This document shows positions 8,278 to 50,845 of a stretch of DNA of 64,000 bases, in pieces. Source of the DNA: Scyliorhinus canicula (Eukaryota); contig NC_052148.1 of NCBI RefSeq assembly GCF_902713615.1, forward strand, positions 222,178,263 through 222,242,262, in the 5' to 3' direction. Within the stretch, counting starts at the first letter, position 1. Every line of letters begins with the position of its first letter. The notes below the pieces were generated by a model that saw nothing but the letters and a program-made list of their open reading frames with translations, was not told the origin of the DNA and searched no databases. Both the position numbers and the translations under genes were made by a program.

Positions 8278-8503
8278 GAGTTTAATATCTGGAATTTCTG
8301 GGTAGGTACTCTTCATTTCCTGCCGTAACTTTGGTGAAAGATCAGCAGAAACTCTCGAGAAATGTCATCAAGTGCTATTTACGTGACTTCTTCAAGGTCT
8401 CTGCCAACCATCATTGAACTGACTTGAGGCGACAAGAAGAACCCTCTGGAAATCTACCCCTAAGAAGTTGAACTCCAAGATAAAACAAATAAATTTAATT
8501 TAC

Positions 8504-8741
8504 CTTTGCATAGCAGGGCTCCCCAAAGAAGTCGCATTTTAAGAGAGTGGAGTTATCAAGTTGGTAACCATATTTTTTGGTGAAATTCTTGATGCTGAAA
8601 GTTGGATTTCCGTGAAGAAAGTCTCGGATTTCTTGAGAAGTGACGCTGTTTCCATCACTTTGGCCAATTCTTAGAACAACACACACAATAGACCACAACA
8701 GGTATATGATGTTCAAGTTGGCTACAGCTTGGGCTTGGTAT
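8504..8741 (-). CDS. ASIC5: acid-sensing ion channel 5 (BASIC), coding exon 3
   Basis: Translates (R)YQAQAVANLNIIYLLWSIVCVVLRIG...NFTKKYGYQLDNSTLLKCDFFGEPCYAK, collinear with ASIC5 RFQTDAVAKFGVIFFLW...LNNSTLLDCEFFGKPC. AG acceptor at 8742-8743, GTAAAT donor at 8503. 238 bp, phase 2 start matching exon 2. Confidence 0.93.
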
Positions 8742-9044
8742 CTATAGGTGACAAAACAAAATGACATTTTCATGGTGGTGTGAACACCAATATATGAAGG
8801 TCACCTTTGAGAGTACAGCTGGCATTGTGAAAATATAGAACCGAATGATAAAACTGAAAAAAATTGCTTGGAGTGGGAGAACCTTACAGATACAGTAACC
8901 TTGCATTACTTCAGTCAGTACATAGAATTGCATTTCTTAATAATTCCCCAATTAACCAAGAAAATGATCAATCACCATTTAAAGGCCTGTGACATTTTAA
9001 GGGATTACTTTGACCAATTGTCTTCTTTATGAAAGAAATGCAGA

Positions 9045-9940: not shown

Positions 9941-10670
9941 ATATCCCACAAAATTCCTTCAGTGTTGAATCTACTGATGCATTTTGTCTGTTCATAGCAC
10001 AGTCTGCACTGTAAACTTGGGTAACTAGCTCAAGGGCTTCATATGCTTCCACTCCCAGTAGAGATTCACGTTCAGCCTCTACAATGGAAAATTGTACTGT
10101 GTGAACTCTGTTCTTCACATTTACATCAAGCTCGCATGCTCCTAGCATAGTAATTTCATTTCCTTTGCAGCCTTTAAATATTACTGCTTCATTTAACACT
10201 TGCGGTTTCATTCTCAGCTCATTTAAATCTGACAAACTGATAAGATTGGCCCTTGCTCCGAGGCATACTTCATCAACCATGTTGATTGATTTTGTTTGTT
10301 TTTTTTTTACTGGTAAAGCATTGCTTCACAAAATGATTTCTGCCTTTACATTTGGAGCATATCTTTCCAAACGCTGGACATTGTTGTGGGAAATGTCGAT
10401 TGCCGCATCACTGGCATGAAATGGAGGATTCGGTCAACCGCTTAAAATGGCTGCCGGTGCTGGGAACACGTTTTATACTCGAGTGTGTCACTACACTAAT
10501 GGCGTTGGCTGCCTCTCCTATCTTTGCGCCAAAACATTTCAGATTCAAAGTGCTAATCTGCTGTGAAGCTAGCTCGCTGGCATAACAAATTTTAACAGCA
10601 TTATCAAGCTGAAGCTCATTTTCTCTTCACAACCTCTCGCATACCTTGTCGTTACAAATCCCAAACAAGA
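9941..10670 (-). mobile_element. Gypsy gag/protease fragment
   Basis: ORF 9936-10280: LGARANLISLSD...LGACELDVNVKNRVHTVQFSIVEAERESLLGVEA (retropepsin fold). Gag-like LFGICNDKVCERL upstream. Confidence 0.75.
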
Positions 10671-12468: not shown

Positions 12469-12732
12469 GTCTACACCTGGAAGTGGACAATCTTTGTTTC
12501 TACTGTTCCATGCCTCCACACAATTGATTGAATGCTTCATGTAATCTTACTCTCCTTCAGAGTTGATGTAAATTGTCTCATGTTTAGCCTTATGGAGCAT
12601 CACACGTTGTCATAGCTCATTTTTGTTTGTCAACCAGATCTTTTTGTGTGTTCCACTTGTCTTCATATGAACTTTCGTTTTAAAAGTCATTGAGAAACAT
12701 GCAGGAGTAAATTAAAATATAGCATGCCATAC

Positions 12733-13039
12733 CTATTTAAGTTGCAGAAAGTAACAGCAGGAAATTCAATTTGCTCAACATACTTAATAGTGACAGATGT
12801 AGATGTTGGCCAGCTGAAGTAACGAATGAAGCACTGGGTGATCTGAGAACAAACCCCGATTACACATCCAAGGACGACAACCATCCAGAAAACCCTGCGA
12901 GGTGTAGGTTTGCTTTGCAGTGCATTTCGTAATCCATGGAAAGAGGTTGATGCTGCAAACTCATGGTCAAAGTGTCGTACGTTCTCCATGGACAGCAATA
13001 TTTTTCCGAATAAAAAAGACCAAATCTTTTTTAATATGC
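12733..13039 (-). CDS. ASIC5: acid-sensing ion channel 5 (BASIC), coding exon 2
   Basis: GILKKIW...FDHEFAASTSFHGLRN...RRVFWMVVVLG (TM1)...YFSWPTSTSV...EFPAVTFCNLNR: DEG/ENaC HG gating motif, TM1 and FPAVTFCN signature, closest to ASIC5. Polypyrimidine tract plus AG at 13040-13041, GTATGG donor at 12732. 307 bp. Confidence 0.95.
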
Positions 13040-13430
13040 CTAAAAAAAATTTCAAACAAGAGGTAACAGTCATTGATTTTTTTCAACTTTGAGCGTTTTG
13101 TTGCTAAGAGTAAAGGGAAAGTTTTCAAATTTAAACCAATTGTCCAAATTGCATTGAGCTTACCTCTGGTTGCACAAATGCTGCAATTGTCTTTAATAAT
13201 GTAGGTGCAAACATTTGGAAATATATTTTTAGTCAGGTTTCTCTATCTCTGACGTCAAACCTGACCCAGACTGAGGGGATAAAAGTTTGTTGACTACCTG
13301 GTTCCTGATAAAATTAGCTTGGTTTGTCTCACTTATTATGTCAGATTTCCAGCGCCCATCATATTTTGTTTTTATTATTCTGTGATGCCAATGTAAAGAG
13401 AGCATTTCATTTCACAGCTGGCTATGTTAT

Positions 13431-34980: not shown

Positions 34981-35498
34981 TTTATCTCCACCTTGGAACC
35001 ATTGCTGCAAAAAGGGGCGTGTGCGATACTTTGCTTCCTGAAGTCGATGATCTGTTCCTTAGTTTGCTGACATTGAAGGAGAGATTGTTGTCATTGCATC
35101 ATGCTACTAGGTTCTCTGTCTCCCTCCTGTACTCTGACTCATCATTGTTTGAGACTGATCCATTACGATGGTGTCATCAGCAAACTTGTAGATGGATTTG
35201 AAGCCACACAGTCGTGTGTGTGTAAAGGCTATAGTAGAGGTCTAAATACGCAGCCTTGTGGGGCCCTGCTATTGAGGGTTATTGTGGAGGAGATGTTATT
35301 GTTTATCCTTACTGATTGTGGTCTATTGGTCAGGTAGTCAAAGATCCAGTTGCAAAGGGAGGAGCCAGTTCCTAGGTTTTGGAGTTTGAATATGAGTTTG
35401 GCTGGGATTATGGTGTTGAAGGCGGAGCTGTAATCAATAAATAAGAGTCTGACGTAGGAGTCCTTCAGGGTTGAGCGTAGGGCCAGGGAGATAGCGTC

Positions 35499-36809
35499 AG
35501 AGGATGATGATTACGATGATGATAATTACGATCACTATGATTACGATGAGCAAAGTGAAGAATTAGATGATGAGCCAGAAGAGGAAGAACATGAAAGACT
35601 ATTCAGTTGGTTTGGCAGGAGTGACGAGGTGGTCACAAGTAGCATCCAATCTGCTCAGGACAATGGTAAGTGTGAAAGCTCTAACATGGCGTGTGCAAAA
35701 GCCATGAATGTGGGATTGCAAAAGCAGAGCAAACAGACGAGAGCAAATTGACTGCAAACAGACTGGTAACTGAAGAAATAATCCCCATTTTGAAGAAATT
35801 GGCTCAAGAGACATATGATGTATCGTCCCATGCCCATGGGATGGTTCCTGCAGTGAATTCCCCAATACTCGAGGCCAGTCCACCAAAAGACTTTGAGGAA
35901 GAACAGATGGATACATCTTCGTCCAGTTCTCCAACAAAAGACAAAACATGTATTGTGATATCGGATGAGGATGAGCCACCAATCAGTTCTCCAACAAGAC
36001 AAAGCATATATTTTCATGGTAGATGAGGAAGAGCCAGTAATTGAGGCTAAAACACAAAGGGAAGAAGCAACACCTAATGTTGATGACAATGATCCAGCTA
36101 AGATACTGGAACGCGAGGGTTTGCAGATCATTCCTGAAGTCGCAGACTTGCCTGCAACAGTGAAAGCATCCAAAAGTATGCCGACAGTGGATGCCTCACC
36201 AGGTGATGGGCATGCAGTGCAGTGTTCGAGCACAAGCACCATGGATCAACCAAAACTCCTCAATCCAGCAAAGGCTTCAGAATCAGCTATTGTGGCAGAA
36301 GAAACAGAATCAGCTATCACAGCAAAAGATCCAGAAGCAGTCATTGTTAACAAGGGATCCAGAAACAGCTAATGCCATGGTCGAGTCCAGTAGCAAGAAC
36401 GATGCCACTAAAGCTGAGAAGAAATGGAGAAGGAAAGAGCTGATAATTAAAGAGAAAAAGGAAGGGTAAGAGCGTCCAGGACACAGTTGGTCGACTGGGT
36501 CGCACCATTGACAGTGAAGATACAAGCAACAGCAAGAAGGCCAATATACAAGAAAATGCACAGAGACGGAGCAGAAGCATCGCTCCAAAAGGCTGAAATA
36601 GTTAGTGCAAAGACCAGCCAGAAAACCAGTCTTCTGAAAGTTGAAGCAAGGTTAAGTATCTGGCCAAGGGTCAGGAGAACAACAAGGCTATGTTGTTGTG
36701 AATATGTAATAAACTGTGCACAAGGGACATGTTTAAAATTATTATGCAGATCATGCTTTGGAAAGCATGGTTGCATTTGTAAATGTCAACACTTCCAAAG
36801 GAAGGGGGA
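35499..36809 (+). pseudogene. internal region of a second NAP1-capturing LTR element (acidic tract, conserved helix, SIM-like repeats, basic tail); 5' part lost
   Basis: [64 protein letters not shown] and KHRSKR align in order with motifs in 48430-49777. Ends in PPT AAAGGAAGGGGGA. The NAP domain itself is not present in this copy. Confidence 0.75.
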
Positions 36810-37113
36810 TGTAGTGATATGCCTGTGCACAGTAATGTTTATTGTTATTGATATGACCTCCAACCAGCAGGTGGTGATAGAGATCTACCATGTGACTCGA
36901 GGTGTCCTGCAGTCGGTAGTAAGTTGTACTAGAGGATAGTCGCACTAGAAGTAGCTCCAGGAGAATTCATGAATTCATTGATTTGTTGCCGTTTGTATCT
37001 TAGATCATTAGTTATCTTTCTACGTGTTTATTTTGTTAATAAAGTATCTTACTAATCAAAGAACTCAAAGTTCTGTGTTTATCTGTACTACGGCCACAAC
37101 ACAGAACATAACA
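36810..37113 (+). mobile_element. 3' LTR of the second element
   Basis: Follows the PPT; TGTAGTGATATGCC...CATAACA termini; AATAAA near 37038; shares ACCTCCAACCAGCAGGTGG with the LTRs at 46912 and 50526. Confidence 0.8.
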
Positions 37114-38633
37114 AATACAAGATCGAGAACTAGAGTCCGTGCAAACACTATGCTGATGTCACTACAGATCAGTTGACATCCCACCAGCAGAGAATATATT
37201 ACTTATTACCTTTTACTTCTTTACTATAGACAACAATTTTTTTCTTATTATTTAAAAAACAGACCCAATTATGCATTAAATACTTCACTTTGTGCTATTA
37301 TCTTTTTTTACATATGCACATATTTAATAAGACAGTCTCTCAGGTGGACGTCAATTTTGGGTTGCACTCAATGTTCTACAATCTGGCTACTTGAGACCTT
37401 TAAAGTGTCTTCTTTTCTTTTGTTGGGACTGTTTCCTGTGAAGTTACTTCAGTGTCTGTCTCCATTGGTGTTAAATATTCTTCAGAAACAGGGTCTGAAT
37501 TTGTCTCTCTGCTTGGTTTCTGTTCAGAAGTATCACTGCTTAGATTTTCTGATGGAAATACTTCTTTGGAAGTTTCAGTGATTTTACTTTGTGAAGCTAG
37601 TAGTTGGTCGGGATGATGCGTCCGAACTCTCTCGTCATCCAACTGTACGGTATATGATATTGGATCTGTTTTTGCTATGATAACAGCAGATACCGATTTC
37701 TCATTTGTAGTGTAGCTTCTTGCTAACACTTGTTCTCCTTGAGTGAATTCTCACTCAATCTGTGCTTGTCATTGTTGTTTGACAACCTCTGAAGTATCAG
37801 GTTGTATCAAAAGGTCAAACTTTGCTCTTAGTTTCCTTTTGAAAAGCAGCATTACTGGTGAACTCTGTGTCATTGTGTTTGCGGTTTGTCGGTATGACAT
37901 CAAGACGTCATTCACTTTTCTTGAAAATCCCTTCTTTCTTTGATGCCTTGATTGAGTGTTTAAGTGACCGTACAAATCACTCGGCCAATCCGATTGTTGC
38001 AGGATGGTACGGAGCTGACTTAATGTACCGAATACCATTTCCTTTCAAGTAGTCTTTGAACTCCTCGGACGTGAACTGGCCTCCATTTTCACTTACAACC
38101 TGCTCCAGTCTACCAAATCCAAATATTTCATACATTTTCTCAATAGTTTGTCTGTCATCATGGATTTCACAATCACTACTTCTGGCCATTCAGAGTGTCA
38201 ATCTACAATTACTAAAAACATGTGTCCCTCAATTGGACCAGAGTAGTTAGTGTGTATTCTCTGCCACAGTTGTTTCGACCATTCCATGGATGTAAGGGTT
38301 GCTGTAGTGGAATGTTTCTTAGTTTTACACAGGACTGACATTGTCCCACTCTCTTTTCGATTTGAGCATTTAATTCTGGCCACCAAAATAACTGTATGTC
38401 AGTTACTTTCTGACCATGCTACGGGGTCCCTCATGTAGTAGATCAAGGATTTTGTTATGGAGCAATATTACTCGGATTCCCCATAATAAAACTCCATTCT
38501 GGACTGTCAACTTAAGTCTTCTTGTGATGTAGGTCTTGTGGTCTGGAGCTTTACAGTGTACATTCATCATCGTTCCATTTAGGACCATATCCATAATCTT
38601 CCCCATCACTGGATCGGTTCTTGTATATATCTA

Positions 38634-38816
38634 GGGCAGAATTCTCCATCCCGCCAGACCCGTTTTCTGAGATGGTGCGGGCCCCACCGGCAGTGGGATC
38701 CTCTGTCCCAAGCAGCCGGCCGATTGGGTTTCGCATTGTGGCCATCCACACGCCATCGGCAAATCCGGGGGCGTGAGTGTGTTGCCGGAGGATCCCGCCG
38801 ACGGAGAATCCCGCCC
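38634..38816. mobile_element. Harbinger-type MITE
   Basis: TIRs GGGCAGAATTCTCC / GGAGAATCCCGCCC with 3-bp flanks CTA/TTA. Confidence 0.8.
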
Positions 38817-39586
38817 TTATACTTGAGATGAAGTCTCAGCTACATTATCCACCTGTGGGAAATATAGGATGTTGACAACATTTTCTTCAGGTTATTGCTT
38901 GATTTGTAATGGCAATCTTGACAAAGTATCAGCATTTGGATGTTTCTCCGATTTACAATATTGGATACCTATGCGCCGATAATCTGAAAGACCATCGCCA
39001 TAACCTACTATCTGCTAATTTATATGACCCGAAGAGGGTCAGTGATCTGTCAAGAGTGTAAAATAATGTTAATAAAGGTATTGGTGAAACGTTCTTACTC
39101 TGAATATTTTGCTCAAAGCTTCTTTTTCTCGCTGAATGTAATTTTTTTCTGTGCTATAAGTGTTCGTGAAGTGAATGCTATCAGTCGTTCCTCTCCTGAA
39201 GGCATTATGTATGAGACAACTGCATCAACTCCATAGGGTGATGCATTGCATGCAGATTGTAACTTCAGCTTGGGATTGTAATGAACCAATAGCCCTGACT
39301 TATTTAACACTATCTTTATCTCTTTATACGCCCCTTTTCATTCTTCTGACCAGTGCCTTACCTGTTTGGCAAAGTATGTAAAGACTTGAATCCCGTTACT
39401 AAATTTGGGACAAATTTCCCTTATTAATTGATTAATCTCAGAAACAACCTCAGTTGTACAACAGTTTGAGAACACATTACTTCTAAGATTTCATATTTTT
39501 CGGCTCCTAATACAAACCATATTTATCGATGACTTAATTCAGGTTGTTTATGGATGTCTTGAAAAAGTCACACTTTTCCTTTTTAA

Positions 39587-39970
39587 TGTTGTGTTGGCTT
39601 GTGTAGGCTTGAGAGATGAACAGACACTTCCAACACAGATGAAGGTTCAACTCAATTTTATTAACTACTTCTAACTAACTAACACACGATGACTGTGGGT
39701 CTAAATAATGCTAACTTGAACTAGAGACCTAAGCCTTGTCCGAACCAGGTGATTCTGTCAGCACGTGTTGTGAGTCCGTGCTGGGCTGAATAAGTTCCTG
39801 TTACCCTCAGAGGCAGCACCCAGAATGAGCGGGAACCGTGGTGCCCTCTGACTTTATAGTGTGTGTATTCTAACTGATGATTGGCTGCGGTGTTTGTACA
39901 TGTTGATTGGTCTCTGTGTGTGTCCATCAGTGTGTGTCTGCACCATGATATATTGGTATATATTATGACA
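39587..39970 (-). mobile_element. solo LTR inserted in Gypsy pol
   Basis: TGTTGTG...TATGACA termini, 5-bp TSD TTTAA and a minus-strand AATAAA. Confidence 0.85.
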
Positions 39971-41019
39971 TTTAACTCCGAGACTATGGTTTTGTAAGTG
40001 TTTCAGTGTAGCTGCAAGTTCTTCAAGTGCTATTGTTCCCTTGAACTGGTGATGATGATGTCATCATAACATTGCACCCTATTTAGCCCCCTCAGAATGT
40101 GATCCACGGACCTCTGAAAAAGAGCAGGAAAAGATTGATCCCAAATGGAAGTCTCCTGTAATGAAACAGACCATTGTGCCACACGATAGTGAGTAGCGGC
40201 TGGGATGTTGTAGCCAGTACGCCTGTGATAGACCTATTTTACTGAATTGCTGACCTCCAGAAAGTCCAGCCAACAAATCTTCAATCAATGGCAGTGGAAA
40301 CTGATCTGCGCACAATACTGGATTTATAATTGTCTTGCAATCTCCACATATTCTTACCAAACAATTAGATGTTTTGTCGACAGTTTTGAGAGCGGCAGCC
40401 AGTGCTCTCTTCAGAATCCATTAGTTAGGCCACACAACCAATGACACAAATGAACAGACATGTTTCGTGTCTATTTGAACTAGTTGTAATAGTGTTGCAA
40501 TCAAGTAAAACTGACACAGCTAACAACTGCACGACTAGAAATGTAAACATCAGAGATGATACGAGTATCTCCCGTTATTTTGAATTATTAGCCATCCATT
40601 TTTCAGATAAGGACTGTTTTGGAGACAGTTGAGAAATCACCCTCAGTTTAGTGAGTTTATATATTTTGTGTGTTTATTCGCTGAGTGGACTAGATTTCAT
40701 TGACTGTCTTAGTCCATGGAACACATTCACTATTAAATAATCACACAACATGATAATGGAGTCATATTTTGTTGTAATTGCCATTGCCAAGTATCTTTTC
40801 AAATTTATATTCTTTTGATGATTTTCATTTTGTCTTTATGATACTGTTTGTTATTTCCCATTTTACAGTCCCAAAATTTCATCTGCAACCAGATATTGAA
40901 CCTTGAGTGTCCCTCCCACTTGTTGATTGGTACACTGGCTATGCTTTTATGTTGACTTTTCAGTGTTACGCTGTTCATGCTGTGTAAATATGAACTCGTG
41001 ACAGACTTTGAACCTTTTT

Positions 41020-45042: not shown

Positions 45043-47109
45043 TCCATAACCGAATAATTTTAGTTAATGCCTCGAGTCTTGCTCTGTGCTAAGTTAGAGG
45101 AGTTGGTGATGAGGGGTAAGTGTGATGTGAGAGAATTTGTTGTGATGATACTCTCATTTTCAGTGGTTTCAGCCCTGCTGCCAGGAACACTGTTCCAATA
45201 ACGTCCAGTAATAATCTCCTACATGAAGATTTAGACACGCAGGTACACCGTACCACTCCTATTGTTTCATGCTGCCTTTGAATGTACGTTCCCCATTCTG
45301 CAAAAAAGAGGGAAGTGTGTTGTGAAATCTGTTGGTATGATGTTGTTATGATGAATAGCTGGTAATGCATGGAAACTGTAAAATGCAGCTATGAGGCTCT
45401 CATCAGTGTTAATGTGTGAGGGTGCTGTAATGTTTATGAATCCAGGATGAGTCCTAATTGAAATTCATGGTTGCTAGGTAATAGCTTTGAGGTGAAGTGA
45501 GCAGCGTCTGAGGCCAGCAGCGCAGTTGGTAGAATCTGACATTTGAAGATGCATTCACTGGCCTTGTAACATTCCCCTTTAAGGGGTCAAGCCCCCAGAG
45601 CGGCATGGCCAATCGGATAGCGGAGCCAGAGTGCGTGAACCCTGGGGTCAGATCTCAGTTTTCCCAGTTAGTTAGGAGTTTAGAGTCTTGGAACATGGTA
45701 GCTTTAATCTCACGCTCTGTGTATAGTGTTTTACTTTAATACACCGTTCATTTGTTAATCTATCTGGTGGTTGCCTGCCTGTCAGAACATGACATTTAAC
45801 TGCTCATGTGAGGTTATTGAACTTCTTGCAGCACTGCATCCGGTCCTTCATAATAGACTTCTAGCATGACTTCCAAAGCCATCTACTCCCACTGCCTTTT
45901 GACCTTTGGACGATCTCCTGAGGACCTGCCATGTATGATGTTTCTCCTCTTTCCTACATCCCGCAACCAAACCTCCAATGTAATGCAGAAAATCTTGCAG
46001 CTCACTCTCCCACCTTGTACCATTTTTCTTTCCCACACCAATTGACTTCCTGCTTGGCTCCCAGTACTTACGCCACAACCGCCACAAAGCACATTCACTT
46101 GAAGGGGATCAAAAGAATGCTGGAAATCTGAAATTAAACACCGAATGGGTGCGATCTACACGAATAGGAACAAAGTCTCGTAATGCGCACAATTAGCCGA
46201 GTGTTTCCTGATGCCCGGAGCTCAGGGAAACACCACACTATCGCACAGCCATCCAGGTAGATTGGGGGCCTCAGTGGAGAATGCGCAGCCAAGGCCGCAT
46301 TTAGCCCAGTTTTCTCCACTGAGGAGTTCTCCTTAGTGAAGGATGAGATTGGGACACCATTTTTAAATGGCGTCCCAATCTCTCGACATCCCCATCCCAA
46401 CTCATCAAAAAGGGAGTCCTCAGGCCCCCCTGCACCGATCCGCAGGGCCTGAAAAATGTCAGTTTGACATTGCCCCGCCAGCTGACAGTGCCAGCTGGGC
46501 ACCTTGGCAGTGTGAGGCTGGCATACAGATGGCAGTGCCAGGCTTGCAGTGTCAAGGTAGAAGGCTGACATCAACAGTGCCAGGGTGCCACCCTGCCAAG
46601 AGGGCAAGCACTTGGGTGACCCCCTCGAGTACCATTCTGTCTTTTTCCTGTTTGTGCAGACCAGCACTGAACAGCGCTTGTCCAAGAACTCCAAGCTGAG
46701 GGAGTTAGATCCCACGCCCTGGGCACATCGTGGGAATGCATATTAGAGTGAGAGTAGCCGTCTCACTCTAATATGCAGATTTCTAAAATGTGAGCGGGAT
46801 TAATATTGTGATGTCTCGCGGGATCACGTTTGATCACGCAAGGCGAGGTGAGCCGGTTAAATCCCGGAAGAGGGATCTCTCTCACACCCCCACACCAATC
46901 TCACCCCACCCTGTGGTGATATGCCTTAAGCAGTATCATAGATGGCTGGTGGTGCAACCTCCAACCAGCAGGTGGCGGTATGGACACACCAGTTTTTCAT
47001 GGATCTCATCGCAGCCAAGGACCAGAAGAGTTCGACCAAAAGAGAAGAAAACAAAATTTTAAATAAGGCTGCAGCTAGTGAGAACTCTTCGGAAACCATT
47101 AAAACAAGT

Positions 47110-47400
47110 TGGAAATCGATGGTATTCCTGAATAACGCATAACTTTGCTGCGACTTCAACCCAACCTCCTCAGTCGGTCTACTCTGCAAAAGCTGAACAG
47201 AACAGCTGAAAGTCACTGATCGGCCAGGTTGCTGGTGTACTTCGGAACAAGAACAATAAAGATCTTTGGTGCATGCGAATTTGAGCTCTTTGTGGACGAC
47301 ATGAGATACACATTACTGTTTCATATTGCAGACATGGTCATTGACTCCATCATAGGAGCAGATTCATCTGAATCCCTGAATTTAGGTCAGCGAATGTATG
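47110..47400 (+). pseudogene. degenerate retropepsin (Gypsy protease) domain
   Basis: W.SMVFLN...NLLSRSTLQKL...LLVYFGTRTIKIFGACEFELFVDDMRYTLLFHIADMVIDSIIGADSSESLNL aligns with the Gypsy protease at 9936-10280. No DTG/DSG catalytic motif visible; stop at 47217. Confidence 0.7.
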
Positions 47401-47529
47401 TCCCAGAAGATGGCTGGCCATCTGAATACCACAGCTCCCTACAAAATGTTAGAGTGTGTACAGTTGTTGAGGATTCAGAAGAAATCCAGGTGGAGGACGA
47501 CGGATCTGACGAAAAGACGGAGCAGCCAG

Positions 47530-48530
47530 CGAGCATTCCGCAATTCTGGTTAACAGTCTTCAAGAAGGTGCATGTGCTCTGTGGCATGATACAAGAGCAT
47601 GACGAACCCATATTAAAGCATCTGCAAGGTGTGAATATTAAATGGACAGAGCATGAGAAACAGTGGATCTTCACTCTTGAGTTTAAGTTCGAACCTGTTG
47701 AGTACTTTACAAATAAGGTGATCATGATTAGAGTGTGTACAGTTGGGGGCCTCACGGTAGCATGGTGGTTAGCATCAATGCTTCACAGCTCCAGGGTCCC
47801 AGGTTCGATTCCCAGCTGGGTCACTGTCTGTGTGGAGTCTGCACGTCCTCCCCGTGTGTGCGTGGGTTTCCTCCGGGTGCTCCGGTTTCCTCCCACAGTC
47901 CAAAGATGTGCGGGTTAGGTGGATTGGCTATGCTAAATTGCCCGTAGTGTAAGGTTAATGGGGGGATTGTTGGGTTACGGGTATACGGGTTACGTGGGTT
48001 TAAGTAGGGTGATCATTGCTCGGCACAACATCGAGGGCCGAAGGGCCTGTTCTGTGCTGTACTGTTCTATGTTCTATGTTCTATGAAAGTATATTGGCTG
48101 GATTCACGACCGCTTAACTCAATCTTTGGTGAACCAGAAATCATGGGGTATACTGGCTGTAAGACTGACTGGAGGGAGGGCAAAAATGTAACAGTAAAAA
48201 CAAATCAAATTAAAACGAACCTCAAAGGTTGAAGCACTTGCAGGACAGTGATGAAAATTGTACCAAATGAATCGTTCTTTAATTTCTTCAGTCCTCCTGA
48301 AGTTCCACAGCATGGAATGTTAAGCCAAAGTTCAGCGGGCGAACCCAATGCTGACTTTGAACTTGGCGGCTACTGTGTGAACACATAATTCTATGTGCAA
48401 TGTTGTATTTTACAGGAGAAATCATTGCAGGCAAGGTTGAATTTGATGATGACTACTATCAATATATGTTTGAAGATTTTGACGATGATGCAGAAAGCGA
48501 TGGCATGGAAGGTGAGATAGATGAAGACCA
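47530..48530 (+). pseudogene. NAP1L1: intronless NAP1L1-like nucleosome assembly protein domain (interrupted by HE1 at 47727-48085)
   Basis: IPQFWLTVFKKV..MIQEHDEPILKHL..FTLEFKFEPVEYFTNKVIM | KVY..PEIMGYTGCKTDWREGKNVTVKT..RTVMKIVPNESFFNFFSPPEVP..ADFELG..MLYFTGE..DDDY is collinear with the NAP1L1 core. Stop TGA at 48230, frameshift near 48373. Confidence 0.92.
47746..48085 (+). mobile_element. HE1 SINE inserted in the NAP domain
   Basis: Full head, V-domain and (TTCTATG)3 tail. The NAP frame resumes exactly at 48086. Confidence 0.92.
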
Positions 48531-48906
48531 GTATGAACTACTTGTTGATCTTTTTATCGCAGCTGCAAAGGCGGGTTCAATGAAAAGGCTCAAGAAGTGC
48601 TACTCCGATGGTTTGGACAGAATGAAGAGATGGTCATGGGGCATCCCGTCTTTGCTCCTGCGAAAAAGACCTACAAGTAGTTCATACTGGTCTTCATCTG
48701 TCACGGGGCATGCCCAGACCACGCTGAACACTGAGAAGAGCGGGAGCTTGGAGATGGTGCATTCAAAGCTGCTGATACTATGGAGGACCAGCCACTGACC
48801 AAGCTAGTAACAGAAGAAATCATCACAGTATTAGAGAAACTGGCTCCAGAGGTGCGTGGTGACTCGTTCCAGGTCTTTGAAACAATTCCTGTAGTCGATT
48901 CCCAAA

Positions 48907-49180
48907 TCATCGAGAACACTGGGGATTAGTGGGAAGGCGTTGATGAATACGATGATAGCAACTCTGATGTGGGAGAGTTTGATGATTCCAGGACTGAAAC
49001 ATTGGAGATCCTTGAGGATACTGAAGATAAATGGGAAGACATTGATGATGAATACGATGATAGCAACTCTGATGTGGGAGAGTTTGATGATTCCAGGACT
49101 GAAACATTGGAGATCCTTGAGGCTACTGAAGATAAATGGGAAGACATTGATGATGAATACGATGACAGCAACTCGGATGT
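48907..49180 (+). repeat. 105-bp in-frame tandem repeat (35-aa acidic unit, about 2.5 copies)
   Basis: GATGAATACGATGA starts at 48942, 49047 and 49152; unit GEFDDSRTETLEILEDTEDKWEDIDDEYDDSNSDV. Confidence 0.95.
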
Positions 49181-49905
49181 CAAAGTGATTGGCAACTCCG
49201 AGGGTGACCCAGGAGAGCAGCTGATGACAACCTCGCTATGCAACTCAATGGTTCACTCTTACATTCTTGAATTTGACCAAGATGACCCATCACAACCAGA
49301 GAGCATCGTAATCTCTAGTGAAGAAGAGCGATCGAGCGATGCTCCAGCGAGCTAAGAGGGGGCGGCACCTGTTGCCCCAGTTCCAACCTCCACCCATGCA
49401 CTAGAAAGTAAGGCGTTTCAACATTCATAGAGGCTGCAGAAGTGGGCGTGGTCACACAACCTAGTGATGACGCGTCGGCCCCTCAGGCTTCACCTGAAAC
49501 CCAGCAGACCTCCAAGCACAGGGTGAAGACCAGCACCAGACCAGAGGCTGCCGAACCTAAACACAAACACAAGAAACTGCGCCATTCCATTCTCAGAACA
49601 AAGAGAACTAAGAGGAGAAGACTGGAAGAGCTAGCTCATTCCACTAAAGAACCAGAAACAGAAACAAAGACAAGCAGCAAACAGCACCATGGCAGGAAGA
49701 GGAAAACAAAGCTGGTGGTGCAAGAGTGGCAATCACAGATGCATGCCTTCCAGAGACACAGAGCAAAGAGGAGATGAGGTACGAGGCCAACATGTAAACC
49801 AGTCTTCGAAGAGGCTGACAACAGCCCAAATGATCACAGAGGTGATCCCATGAGGGAGTAACAATGACATGTGTGAAAGAGACGGACACTGGCCAGGCAT
49901 ATCTT

Positions 49906-50407
49906 GGGCTAGATTCTCCAAAAATGGGGCTATGACCCTACTCAGGCATAAAAATGCTGGCGTTTCACTCTTGACTTTCCTTAAAAAAGTCAAGAGGTAT
50001 TCTCCTACCTACAAGGGACTGGCAGGGCCCCAGAGTGGTTCTCGCAGTCTGGCTGCGGATAGGGGCCCCCGCACCTCTGGTCGGGAGTCCACGCATATGC
50101 ATGGCGACGGTCTGGAGCGGCCGCGCCGAATGCAATTGCGGACTCAGCCGGCGGACCGACATCAAATATGTAGGTCACCCGAGATGCTGCGTGCCCGCGG
50201 ATCCGAGCCGCCCGATCGCTGCACCGGCCGCCCATGAGGCCCTCACCCCACCCCCCCGGTACTTGATCCCCCGTCCCCCACCAGGGCGGCCGCAGACTGA
50301 GCCCGGAGAATCGCGACAGCGGTGCTGGCTACGATTTCCGTGTAAAGATCGATTCCCGCCCCCGCGCCAAACACGATTTTGGCTTGGGGCTGCGGAGAAT
50401 CCAGCCC
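49906..50407. mobile_element. Harbinger-type MITE inserted in the 3' UTR of the NAP-LTR element
   Basis: GGGCTAGATTCTCC / GGAGAATCCAGCCC TIRs with flanks CTT/CAT. Confidence 0.8.
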
Positions 50408-50525
50408 CATGTTTATGGACACCCTGGTTAAACCTACTCACATTGTTAGACATATCATGAATGTATAAAGTTAAAAGATTAATGTTGGTTGTAAACAAAC
50501 CTTAATGTTTTCTGAGGAAGGGGGA

Positions 50526-50845
50526 TGTGTGATATGCCTGGAAGCAATATCATAGATGGCTGGTGGTGTGATCTCCAACCAGCAGGTGGTGGGCAGACAC
50601 ACCATGTGGTCTCAAAACAATGGTCATGTGACAAGGCATTCCAATATAAGTGGGGCACATCCGGCCATAAGGAGATGGGTATTAAACGTACTAGGGTGGT
50701 TCTAAAGGAGTACAAAGAAACTCCATGATAACTTGTCCTGTAACAGATCGTTATCTTACCATGTGTGATTCAATGAAGATCCTGGTTTGGACAAGTCAAG
50801 TTGTTTGGTAGATTCCTTGCTCGACATCGAACACAAAACACAACA
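50526..50845 (+). mobile_element. 3' LTR of the NAP-LTR element
   Basis: TGTGTGATATGCC...CACAACA, preceded by the PPT. Confidence 0.85.

Follow-up and report, generated by a model that had tools for sequence, protein, structure and literature searches.

A decayed LTR retrotransposon end in Scyliorhinus canicula and a non-autonomous Ty3/Gypsy family with pieces of host NAP1L1 and ATF7IP behind Gag

Two stretches of DNA about 10 kb apart in the genome of Scyliorhinus canicula share protein motifs in the same order, and the more diverged of them raises the question of what kind of element it comes from and where its coding sequence was obtained. The DNA analysed (hereafter the window) is 64,000 nt long and lies within contig C3. 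The copy at 35499-37113 (the window copy) is the decayed 3' end of a non-autonomous Ty3/Gypsy LTR retrotransposon (Table 1). It starts within the NAP1L1 acidic tail and has lost the upstream NAP domain, protease, gag and 5' LTR, and an antisense LINE fragment adjoins and truncates it on the 5' side at 35498. No match to the NAP domain proper was found in four open pieces of the copy, and no further 5' piece was found within the window. Open pieces were present at 35473-35748, 35685-36026 and 35959-36372; with its frameshifts and stops, the copy has its motifs in three different frames. The ATF7IP motif reads EIIPILKKLAQ, with two changes that are absent from most relatives. The first copy of the SIM-like word is CIVISDEDE (35949-35975), with ATF7IP AFLVLSDEDE as its source, and the basic tail contains KHRSKR (36575-36592). 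Approximately 110 nt 5' of the PPT were homologous to autonomous Gypsy relatives. Assignment of the LTR to a minus-strand Gypsy remnant at 37400-40420 was ruled out, since the polarity of the PPT and LTR is plus-strand. That minus-strand region holds other Gypsy pol remnants (an integrase end and an RT piece) broken by other repeats, with the window-copy LTR abutting on the 3' side.

Table 1. Coordinates of the window copy, its LINE neighbour and the subfamily B element (positions within the window).
Feature	Position	Strand	Basis or description
LINE-type RT fragment, neighbour outside the element	35232-35498	-	RVT_1, E 3.6e-7; translation
Remnant of captured NAP1L1 C-terminal acidic tail, D/E/Y-rich	35499-35600	+	Continuous with NAP in relatives
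Captured ATF7IP/MCAF1 piece, 3' part of large N-terminal coding exon	35577-36097	+	DNA and protein matches
Copy of ATF7IP motif EIIPILEKLAP	35775-35807	+	Invariant in 22 of 22 aligned host proteins
60-nt tandem duplication with SIM-like word	35924-36041	+	Repeat 80% identical
Low-complexity S/T/A/E/P stretch and basic tail	36098-36650	+	In natural copy L055, in frame with the ATF7IP part
PPT, GGAAGGGGGA	36800-36809	+	Sequence
3' LTR	36810-37113	+	TG...CA, 304 nt; relatives with paired LTRs
Subfamily B element	46912-50845	+	Shortened 5' LTR, protease relic without DTG, NAP, basic tail, PPT
Subfamily B element, ATF7IP motif	48804-48851	+	
Subfamily B element, SIM-like word	49305-49328	+	
Subfamily B element, 3' LTR	50526-50845	+	

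Comparison with the element at 46912 showed that the two are related. The six ordered protein motifs that the initial annotation had reported for both were all in place on the plus strand, and the best protein local score between the window copy and the 46912 element was 92, while codon shuffles (n = 200) gave a mean of 41.1 (sd 4.7) and a maximum of 62. In the shared block (35763-35810 against 48804-48851) there were exactly 5 synonymous and 4 non-synonymous codon differences, as had been counted. The description of a common PPT and LTR start with a diverged LTR body was also borne out; the LTRs are homologous, with 77% identity over the first 78 nt and 69% over 283 aligned nt (score 154 against a shuffled maximum of 74). 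The NAP of the 46912 element is interrupted by a SINE at approximately 47746-48085. An exact 18-nt repeat occurs at 47449-47466 and 47728-47745, 280 nt apart, the second at the SINE junction, and it looks like a templated insertion and not a target duplication. Between the acidic tract and the motif the element has an inverted repeat (48516-48702), and an inverted match at the same place was found again in many B-family matches.

Other features of the window were also identified. An exon of an amiloride-sensitive sodium channel (ASIC/ENaC) family gene lies at 12690-13082 (-) (PF00858, E 4e-24), and 8498-8800 (-) probably belongs to the same gene, which is the host gene in that part of the window. 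G-rich tandem arrays with units of 16-33 nt occupy 175-2900, with an N stretch at 479-887.

The family was then described across the 4.22-Gb genome. Searches gave 837 candidates for the internal part of the window copy (40 scored), 2594 for its LTR (all 40 scored had 82-100% identity) and 2050 for the NAP family (all 144 scored were long intronless matches), and these numbers are lower bounds or first-look figures and not copy numbers. Regions of 8 kb were fetched around the 20 best non-self matches to the window copy. The initial annotation had named relatives with ordinary pol and no NAP as evidence against its reading, and the reading was not refuted; NAP was directly upstream in 18 of the 20 and RT in none, and the two relatives without upstream NAP were one cut by a LINE and one with a deletion. 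RT was likewise found in none of 15 NAP elements with two LTRs. Complete copies are approximately 4 kb long (3.1-4.5 kb without insertions) and consist of 5' LTR, PBS, gag (CCHC), aspartic protease, NAP, acidic tract, ATF7IP segment, low-complexity/basic tail, PPT and 3' LTR, with a PBS that starts TGGTACCA. The Pfam protease match was weak (E 0.027 in an A copy and 3e-5 in an autonomous relative). Target duplications of 5 bp were readable by eye in 4 of 14 paired-LTR NAP elements (L036, L136, L137 and L147) and were mismatched or unreadable in the rest. LTR pairs were 77-87% identical, so all copies examined are old. Nine of ten LTR-matching loci, seen with 1.5-kb flanks only, had no internal sequence and look like solo LTRs.

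No complete open frame was found among the copies examined and individual copies are mostly frameshifted. From modal distances between protein anchors that are mostly multiples of three and from natural frames that cross the junctions, we infer that the family originally had one long reading frame. The protease-NAP distance was 396 nt in 5 of 18 copies and the NAP distance 477 nt in 7 of 27, and the gag N-terminal interval was ambiguous (317 or 318). Natural open frames run across gag-protease-NAP start in L041 and L046, across NAP-ATF7IP in L046, L054 and L069, and across ATF7IP-tail in L055. Stops made up approximately 0.7-0.9% of NAP codons in groups A, M1 and B.

A gag-protease query identified autonomous relatives, with RT after the protease in 16 of 17 loci (L116-L131). 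These share the PBS and PPT context, and their LTRs are 67-71% and gag approximately 71% identical to subfamily A. Homology of gag, LTR and PPT to these RT-bearing relatives places the NAP family as a non-autonomous derivative, non-autonomous because RT is absent, and the relatives are plausible helpers or the parent lineage. Integrase is missing from the NAP elements, judged mainly by element length; an integrase-end query without Pfam support matched one NAP element (L152). A gag-protease fragment of this related autonomous Gypsy family is also present in the window at 9990-10667 (-), and a 98% identical inverted copy just outside it (G000:C3:222257907) suggests a local inverted duplication.

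The donor of the NAP part was searched among host proteins. The best matches were to shark NAP1L1 (72-74%). In the host, NAP1L1 (C20) and NAP1L4 (C9) each have several exons. The element NAP pieces aligned with successive NAP1L1 exons and lacked the introns (72-90% DNA identity, against 72-81% for NAP1L4), so the source was a spliced NAP1L1 mRNA. The captured part starts at approximately residue 141 of human NAP1L1 and contains domain II and most of the acidic tail, covering PF00956 positions 62-266 or near; the open frame of one relative aligned to human NAP1L1 residues 141-378 (E 1e-91, PDB sequence match). The dimerization helix (domain I) is missing from the element NAP and the alignment agrees; a search for the N-terminal half gave 9 first-look candidates, against 2050 for the NAP family, and only four host exons matched. 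In the region of the last helix acidic residues are altered, and the derived subfamilies show this to a greater extent. Domain II and the acidic tail are reported to bind H2A-H2B, and in the yeast complex the histones are described as contacted by both NAP monomers (PMC9128123). With the dimerization helix missing, the chaperone activity of the captured NAP may be weak or changed. An AlphaFold2 model of a relative's NAP-ATF7IP frame had a mean pLDDT of 46.6, too low for use. Some copies carry the NCBI label 'nucleosome assembly protein 1-like 1' (P0001-P0003), and the open frame of one relative is identical to S. canicula protein P0001; several catshark NAP1L1-like gene models are thus transposon fragments.

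The motif behind NAP had been labelled a non-NAP motif, and this label has to be replaced because the motif derives from a second captured host gene, ATF7IP. When the natural post-NAP frame of a relative was searched against 1.84 billion protein representatives, nine matches were obtained: five catshark gene models from element copies, three chondrichthyan ATF7IP proteins and one unrelated repeat protein. The host ATF7IP exon (C23) was 73.5% identical in DNA to window positions 35577-35941 (370 nt aligned, E 2e-57). The match continues in a second piece, 87% identical, up to 36065, and the captured segment is approximately 0.5 kb long. By eye, the homology seems to run to the splice donor of the host exon or near it. 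The homology stops at the upstream exon end before the SETDB1-binding domain, and neither the SETDB1-binding coil (PF16788, ATF7IP_BD, residues 408-638 of P0148), the FNIII domain nor the known C-terminal SIM of ATF7IP (described in PMC3728336) is in the captured piece. The NAP1L1-ATF7IP junction lies in purine-rich acidic codons of both genes, which is consistent with a junction made by template switching. Four gene models (P0153, P0154, P0147 and P0150) contain element-derived ATF7IP-like sequence joined to host domains (cryptochrome-like; labelled mL48) or bear misleading names, and they are possible exonization or annotation artefacts.

Two short blocks of the captured ATF7IP piece, EIIPILEKLAP and AFLVLSDE, were invariant in 22 aligned host proteins from sharks to mammals (2 of 24 proteins, without a match to the locating pattern, were left out). 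In the elements EIIPILEKLAP is kept almost unchanged and AFLVLSDE is kept as an I/V-rich variant. This SIM-like word (three aliphatic residues followed by S/D/E) occurred at least once in 34 of 55 copies and twice in 7, a pattern that was drawn from the same data and shows retention only. A SIM is described as having aliphatic residues at four core positions, with acidic or Ser residues after them (10.1101/2024.01.04.574143); most copies have three aliphatic residues and only some M-type copies the fourth. The host motif also fits a loose PP2A-B56 pattern, [LMFI]xx[ILV]xE (pattern as given in PMC10970375), and no ATF7IP-B56 link was found in the literature. No PDB sequence match was found for the captured ATF7IP segment and no function for its motifs was found in the literature. 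ATF7IP itself is reported to be required for SETDB1 silencing of retroelements (PMC11703210, PMC7354471).

The low-complexity stretch and basic tail had no donor in Pfam, the protein representatives or the ESM Atlas, and no match in the 30 kb downstream of the ATF7IP exon or in the autonomous relatives. Approximately 250 single-cell RNA reads (run X18) pile at 36233-36288 on one strand and represent one related sequence with fewer tandem units; they may come from a relative that is expressed or from a third host gene that supplied the tail. The window copy showed no sign of expression in four raw RNA runs, with reads at least 95% alike in only 2 of 500, 0 of 82, 3 of 123 and 1 of 92; most placed reads came from relatives or from host ATF7IP mRNA, and no RNA run was listed among the sequencing runs that contain the copy. 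Reads at 35762-35811 had loose ends that by eye matched the host ATF7IP exon. In addition, a contig of a second organism (run X9, record 32) joins the window-copy LTR end to the same flank with approximately 92% identity, which suggests that the insertion predates the split from that organism.

The history of the subfamilies was read from the NAP and gag trees. Rooted on the host gene, the NAP tree is a ladder of A (the group of the window copy), M1, M2, B (the group of the 46912 element) and Z, with main-step supports of 0.93-1.0. The gag tree, in which only two B copies passed the length filter, gave the same order A, M1, M2, B with the autonomous family next to A. There was thus one founding chimera, and subfamily A is basal. 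The proposal that at least two subfamilies diversified after the capture is upheld by the NAP tree and by the between-subfamily motif test given below. The 35499 subfamily had been described as the strongly diverged member, which needs correction; it is basal and not derived, it lies nearest to the autonomous relatives and to the two host donors, and the 46912 element is the derived form. The protease catalytic Gly was kept, by eye, in 19 of 20 readable A copies against 1 of 20 M2/B/Z copies, and the derived subfamilies lost the protease DTG. A gag swap (A-B gag dS 0.77, above the NAP dS of 0.32) was dropped, since the order of the gag tree is that of the NAP tree. At host positions that are lineage-specific, A copies mostly had the ancestral state of other sharks in NAP, and in ATF7IP four positions were ancestral, one derived and three neither; the captures are therefore old. 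Element-type proteins were found only in S. canicula and S. torazame among the matches listed (best 120 of 1462), and likewise in the post-NAP-frame search.

Selection was estimated by pairwise comparison of natural copies, with net divergence taken as between-group divergence minus mean within-group divergence. Net A-B dN/dS was 0.14 (0.09-0.23) for the gag capsid, 0.17 for the knuckle (NC) and 0.55 (0.28-1.10) for the protease. For NAP, in a set partly chosen by HMM score, it was 0.35 (0.21-0.57) against 0.75-0.76 within groups; A-M1 alone gave 0.60 (0.37-1.02), which is not significant. Selection was not detectable over the whole 110-codon ATF7IP stretch (net dN/dS 0.78, CI 0.45-1.29). The 11-codon motif, defined by host invariance, had between A and B a net pS of 0.371 and a pN of 0.012, and none of 5000 permutations was as low. 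The 65 flanking codons had a pS of 0.349 and a pN of 0.342, the latter inflated by uncertain flank alignment in B, and the pS-pN contrast of the core is independent of the flanks. A-Z was also significant, A-M1 gave P 0.015 and A-M2, with four M2 copies, was not significant (P 0.10). The test used 24 A, 9 M1, 4 M2, 8 B and 2 Z copies, located via the motif itself, after 12 loci had been dropped (10 with a spurious match, frameshift or adjacent deletion and 2 without the motif). Since the synonymous sites of the motif diverged freely, the constraint was on protein and not on RNA. Overall, gag, NAP and the 11-codon motif were under purifying selection between A and B, and the motif flanks were not. 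The initial annotation had read purifying selection from its codon differences; that selection on the motif was upheld, and the 5:4 count by itself is unable to show it.

From these sequence comparisons, it is marginally favoured that the Gag-fused NAP1L1/ATF7IP cargo, kept by protein-level selection, helped new copies to resist chromatin silencing. Co-packaged RNA could have given rise to the captures, by splicing or by a switch of template. The related autonomous family would have supplied RT and integrase in trans, and the fusion protein would have co-assembled into helper particles. The basic tail may then have taken the fusion protein to chromatin. There H2A-H2B would be bound, either on new DNA or at the target, by the acidic tail and a NAP domain that lacks its dimerization helix, and the ATF7IP motifs would act as competitors for some partner in ATF7IP-SETDB1 silencing. 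The more specific proposal, that pol was given up for a protein-based anti-silencing device made of a monomeric NAP1L1 histone-binding module and an ATF7IP docking-motif decoy, is held tentatively, at somewhat below an even chance.

The cargo could have acted instead at the level of the particle, with NAP keeping nucleocapsid or integrase soluble or aiding RNA packaging in helper particles and the ATF7IP motif recruiting a host trafficking factor. The position of the cargo, in the place of Pol and fused to a strongly conserved Gag, would fit such a role, as would the decayed protease site of the derived subfamilies, with which the fusion may have stayed uncleaved, and human Nap1 is reported to bind HIV-1 Rev, a basic viral protein (PMC13255070). 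However, a second capture from a nuclear retroelement-silencing factor and the retention of an invariant motif are left unexplained, and taken together this particle role is rather unlikely.

Chance pick-up of both pieces, with selection only for an open and foldable Gag fusion, would account for the weaker constraint on NAP than on gag, the neutral ATF7IP flanks and the decayed protease. It does not account for an 11-residue motif in a low-complexity region, without family or structure match, that is nevertheless held at the low pN given above and coincides with the block invariant in host ATF7IP from sharks to mammals, and we regard passenger cargo as improbable.

A counter-defence at the RNA level, in which antisense small RNAs knock down host ATF7IP and NAP1L1 mRNA, has a precedent reported for Drosophila TART-A and nxf2 (PMC7785250, PMC13534243), and a 27-nt stretch of the host ATF7IP exon recurs at 118 places with no more than one mismatch (41 exact among the matches listed, the host gene being one of them). 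The captured pieces are in sense and in frame, however, and the motif kept its amino acids between subfamilies while its synonymous sites diverged. The captured host region was also not accelerated, with 7 of 147 lineage-specific changes against 42 of 1027 elsewhere (Fisher P 1.0, Mustelus control), and this explanation is very doubtful. Finally, processed pseudogenes or a domesticated host gene family beside LTRs, as the NAP1L1-like labels on P0001-P0003 might imply, are largely refuted by paired LTRs that enclose gag, protease, NAP and ATF7IP in an unvarying order and come with PBS, PPT and target duplications, by the stop frequency in NAP and by a within-group dN/dS near the neutral baseline.

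The anti-silencing reading was set against known systems. With autonomous Ty3/Gypsy elements (Metaviridae, single gag-pol frame) the NAP family shares TG...CA LTRs of approximately 300 nt, PBS and PPT context, CCHC gag, KLDTG protease and 5-bp target duplications, but RT-RNase H-integrase is replaced by the NAP1L1 and ATF7IP pieces and the basic tail. By their motifs, the autonomous relatives presumably belong to the Mag-like clade of Ty3/Gypsy. In comparison with NAP1 histone chaperones (PF00956; NAP1L1), domain II (earmuff) and the acidic tail are common and the dimerization helix is absent from the element. Chromoviruses and an orchid Gypsy with AlkB, an m6A demethylase (PMC9289625), are also LTR elements in which a chromatin or epigenetic domain of the host became fixed and is proposed to act against host control; these keep pol, with AlkB in an extra ORF, whereas the NAP family carries two host genes behind gag with pol replaced. 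Telomeric TART-A of Drosophila, which is reported to have captured nxf2, with aub and piwi captures also described (PMC7785250, PMC13534243), is alike in being a retroelement with a fragment of a host silencing-pathway gene. It differs in being non-LTR, piRNA-acting and associated with accelerated host evolution, whereas in the NAP family selection was on amino acids and the host region was not accelerated. A literature search gave no published case of an LTR element that had captured NAP1L1 or ATF7IP, and 'nucleosome assembly', 'gypsy' and 'ATF7IP' are absent from the available main text of the catshark genome paper (PMC11979771); the family may be present as an unannotated repeat in the supplements of that paper, Dfam or Repbase.

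The feature that sets this family apart is the apparent double in-frame capture, including part of a host silencing cofactor, for which a function is suggested by selection. To our knowledge, LTR retrotransposons have rarely acquired host protein domains as fixed parts, and we know of hardly any anti-silencing proteins encoded by transposons in vertebrates, in line with PMC9289625. Here pieces of two host chromatin factors were fused to Gag in a family that numbers about a thousand copies or more. The block EIIPILEKLAP of human and mouse ATF7IP, which lies in neither the SETDB1 coil nor the known SIM, is a candidate docking site in retroelement silencing. If the decoy reading is true, the history of this element would mark an undescribed surface of ATF7IP in SETDB1-dependent silencing of retroelements.
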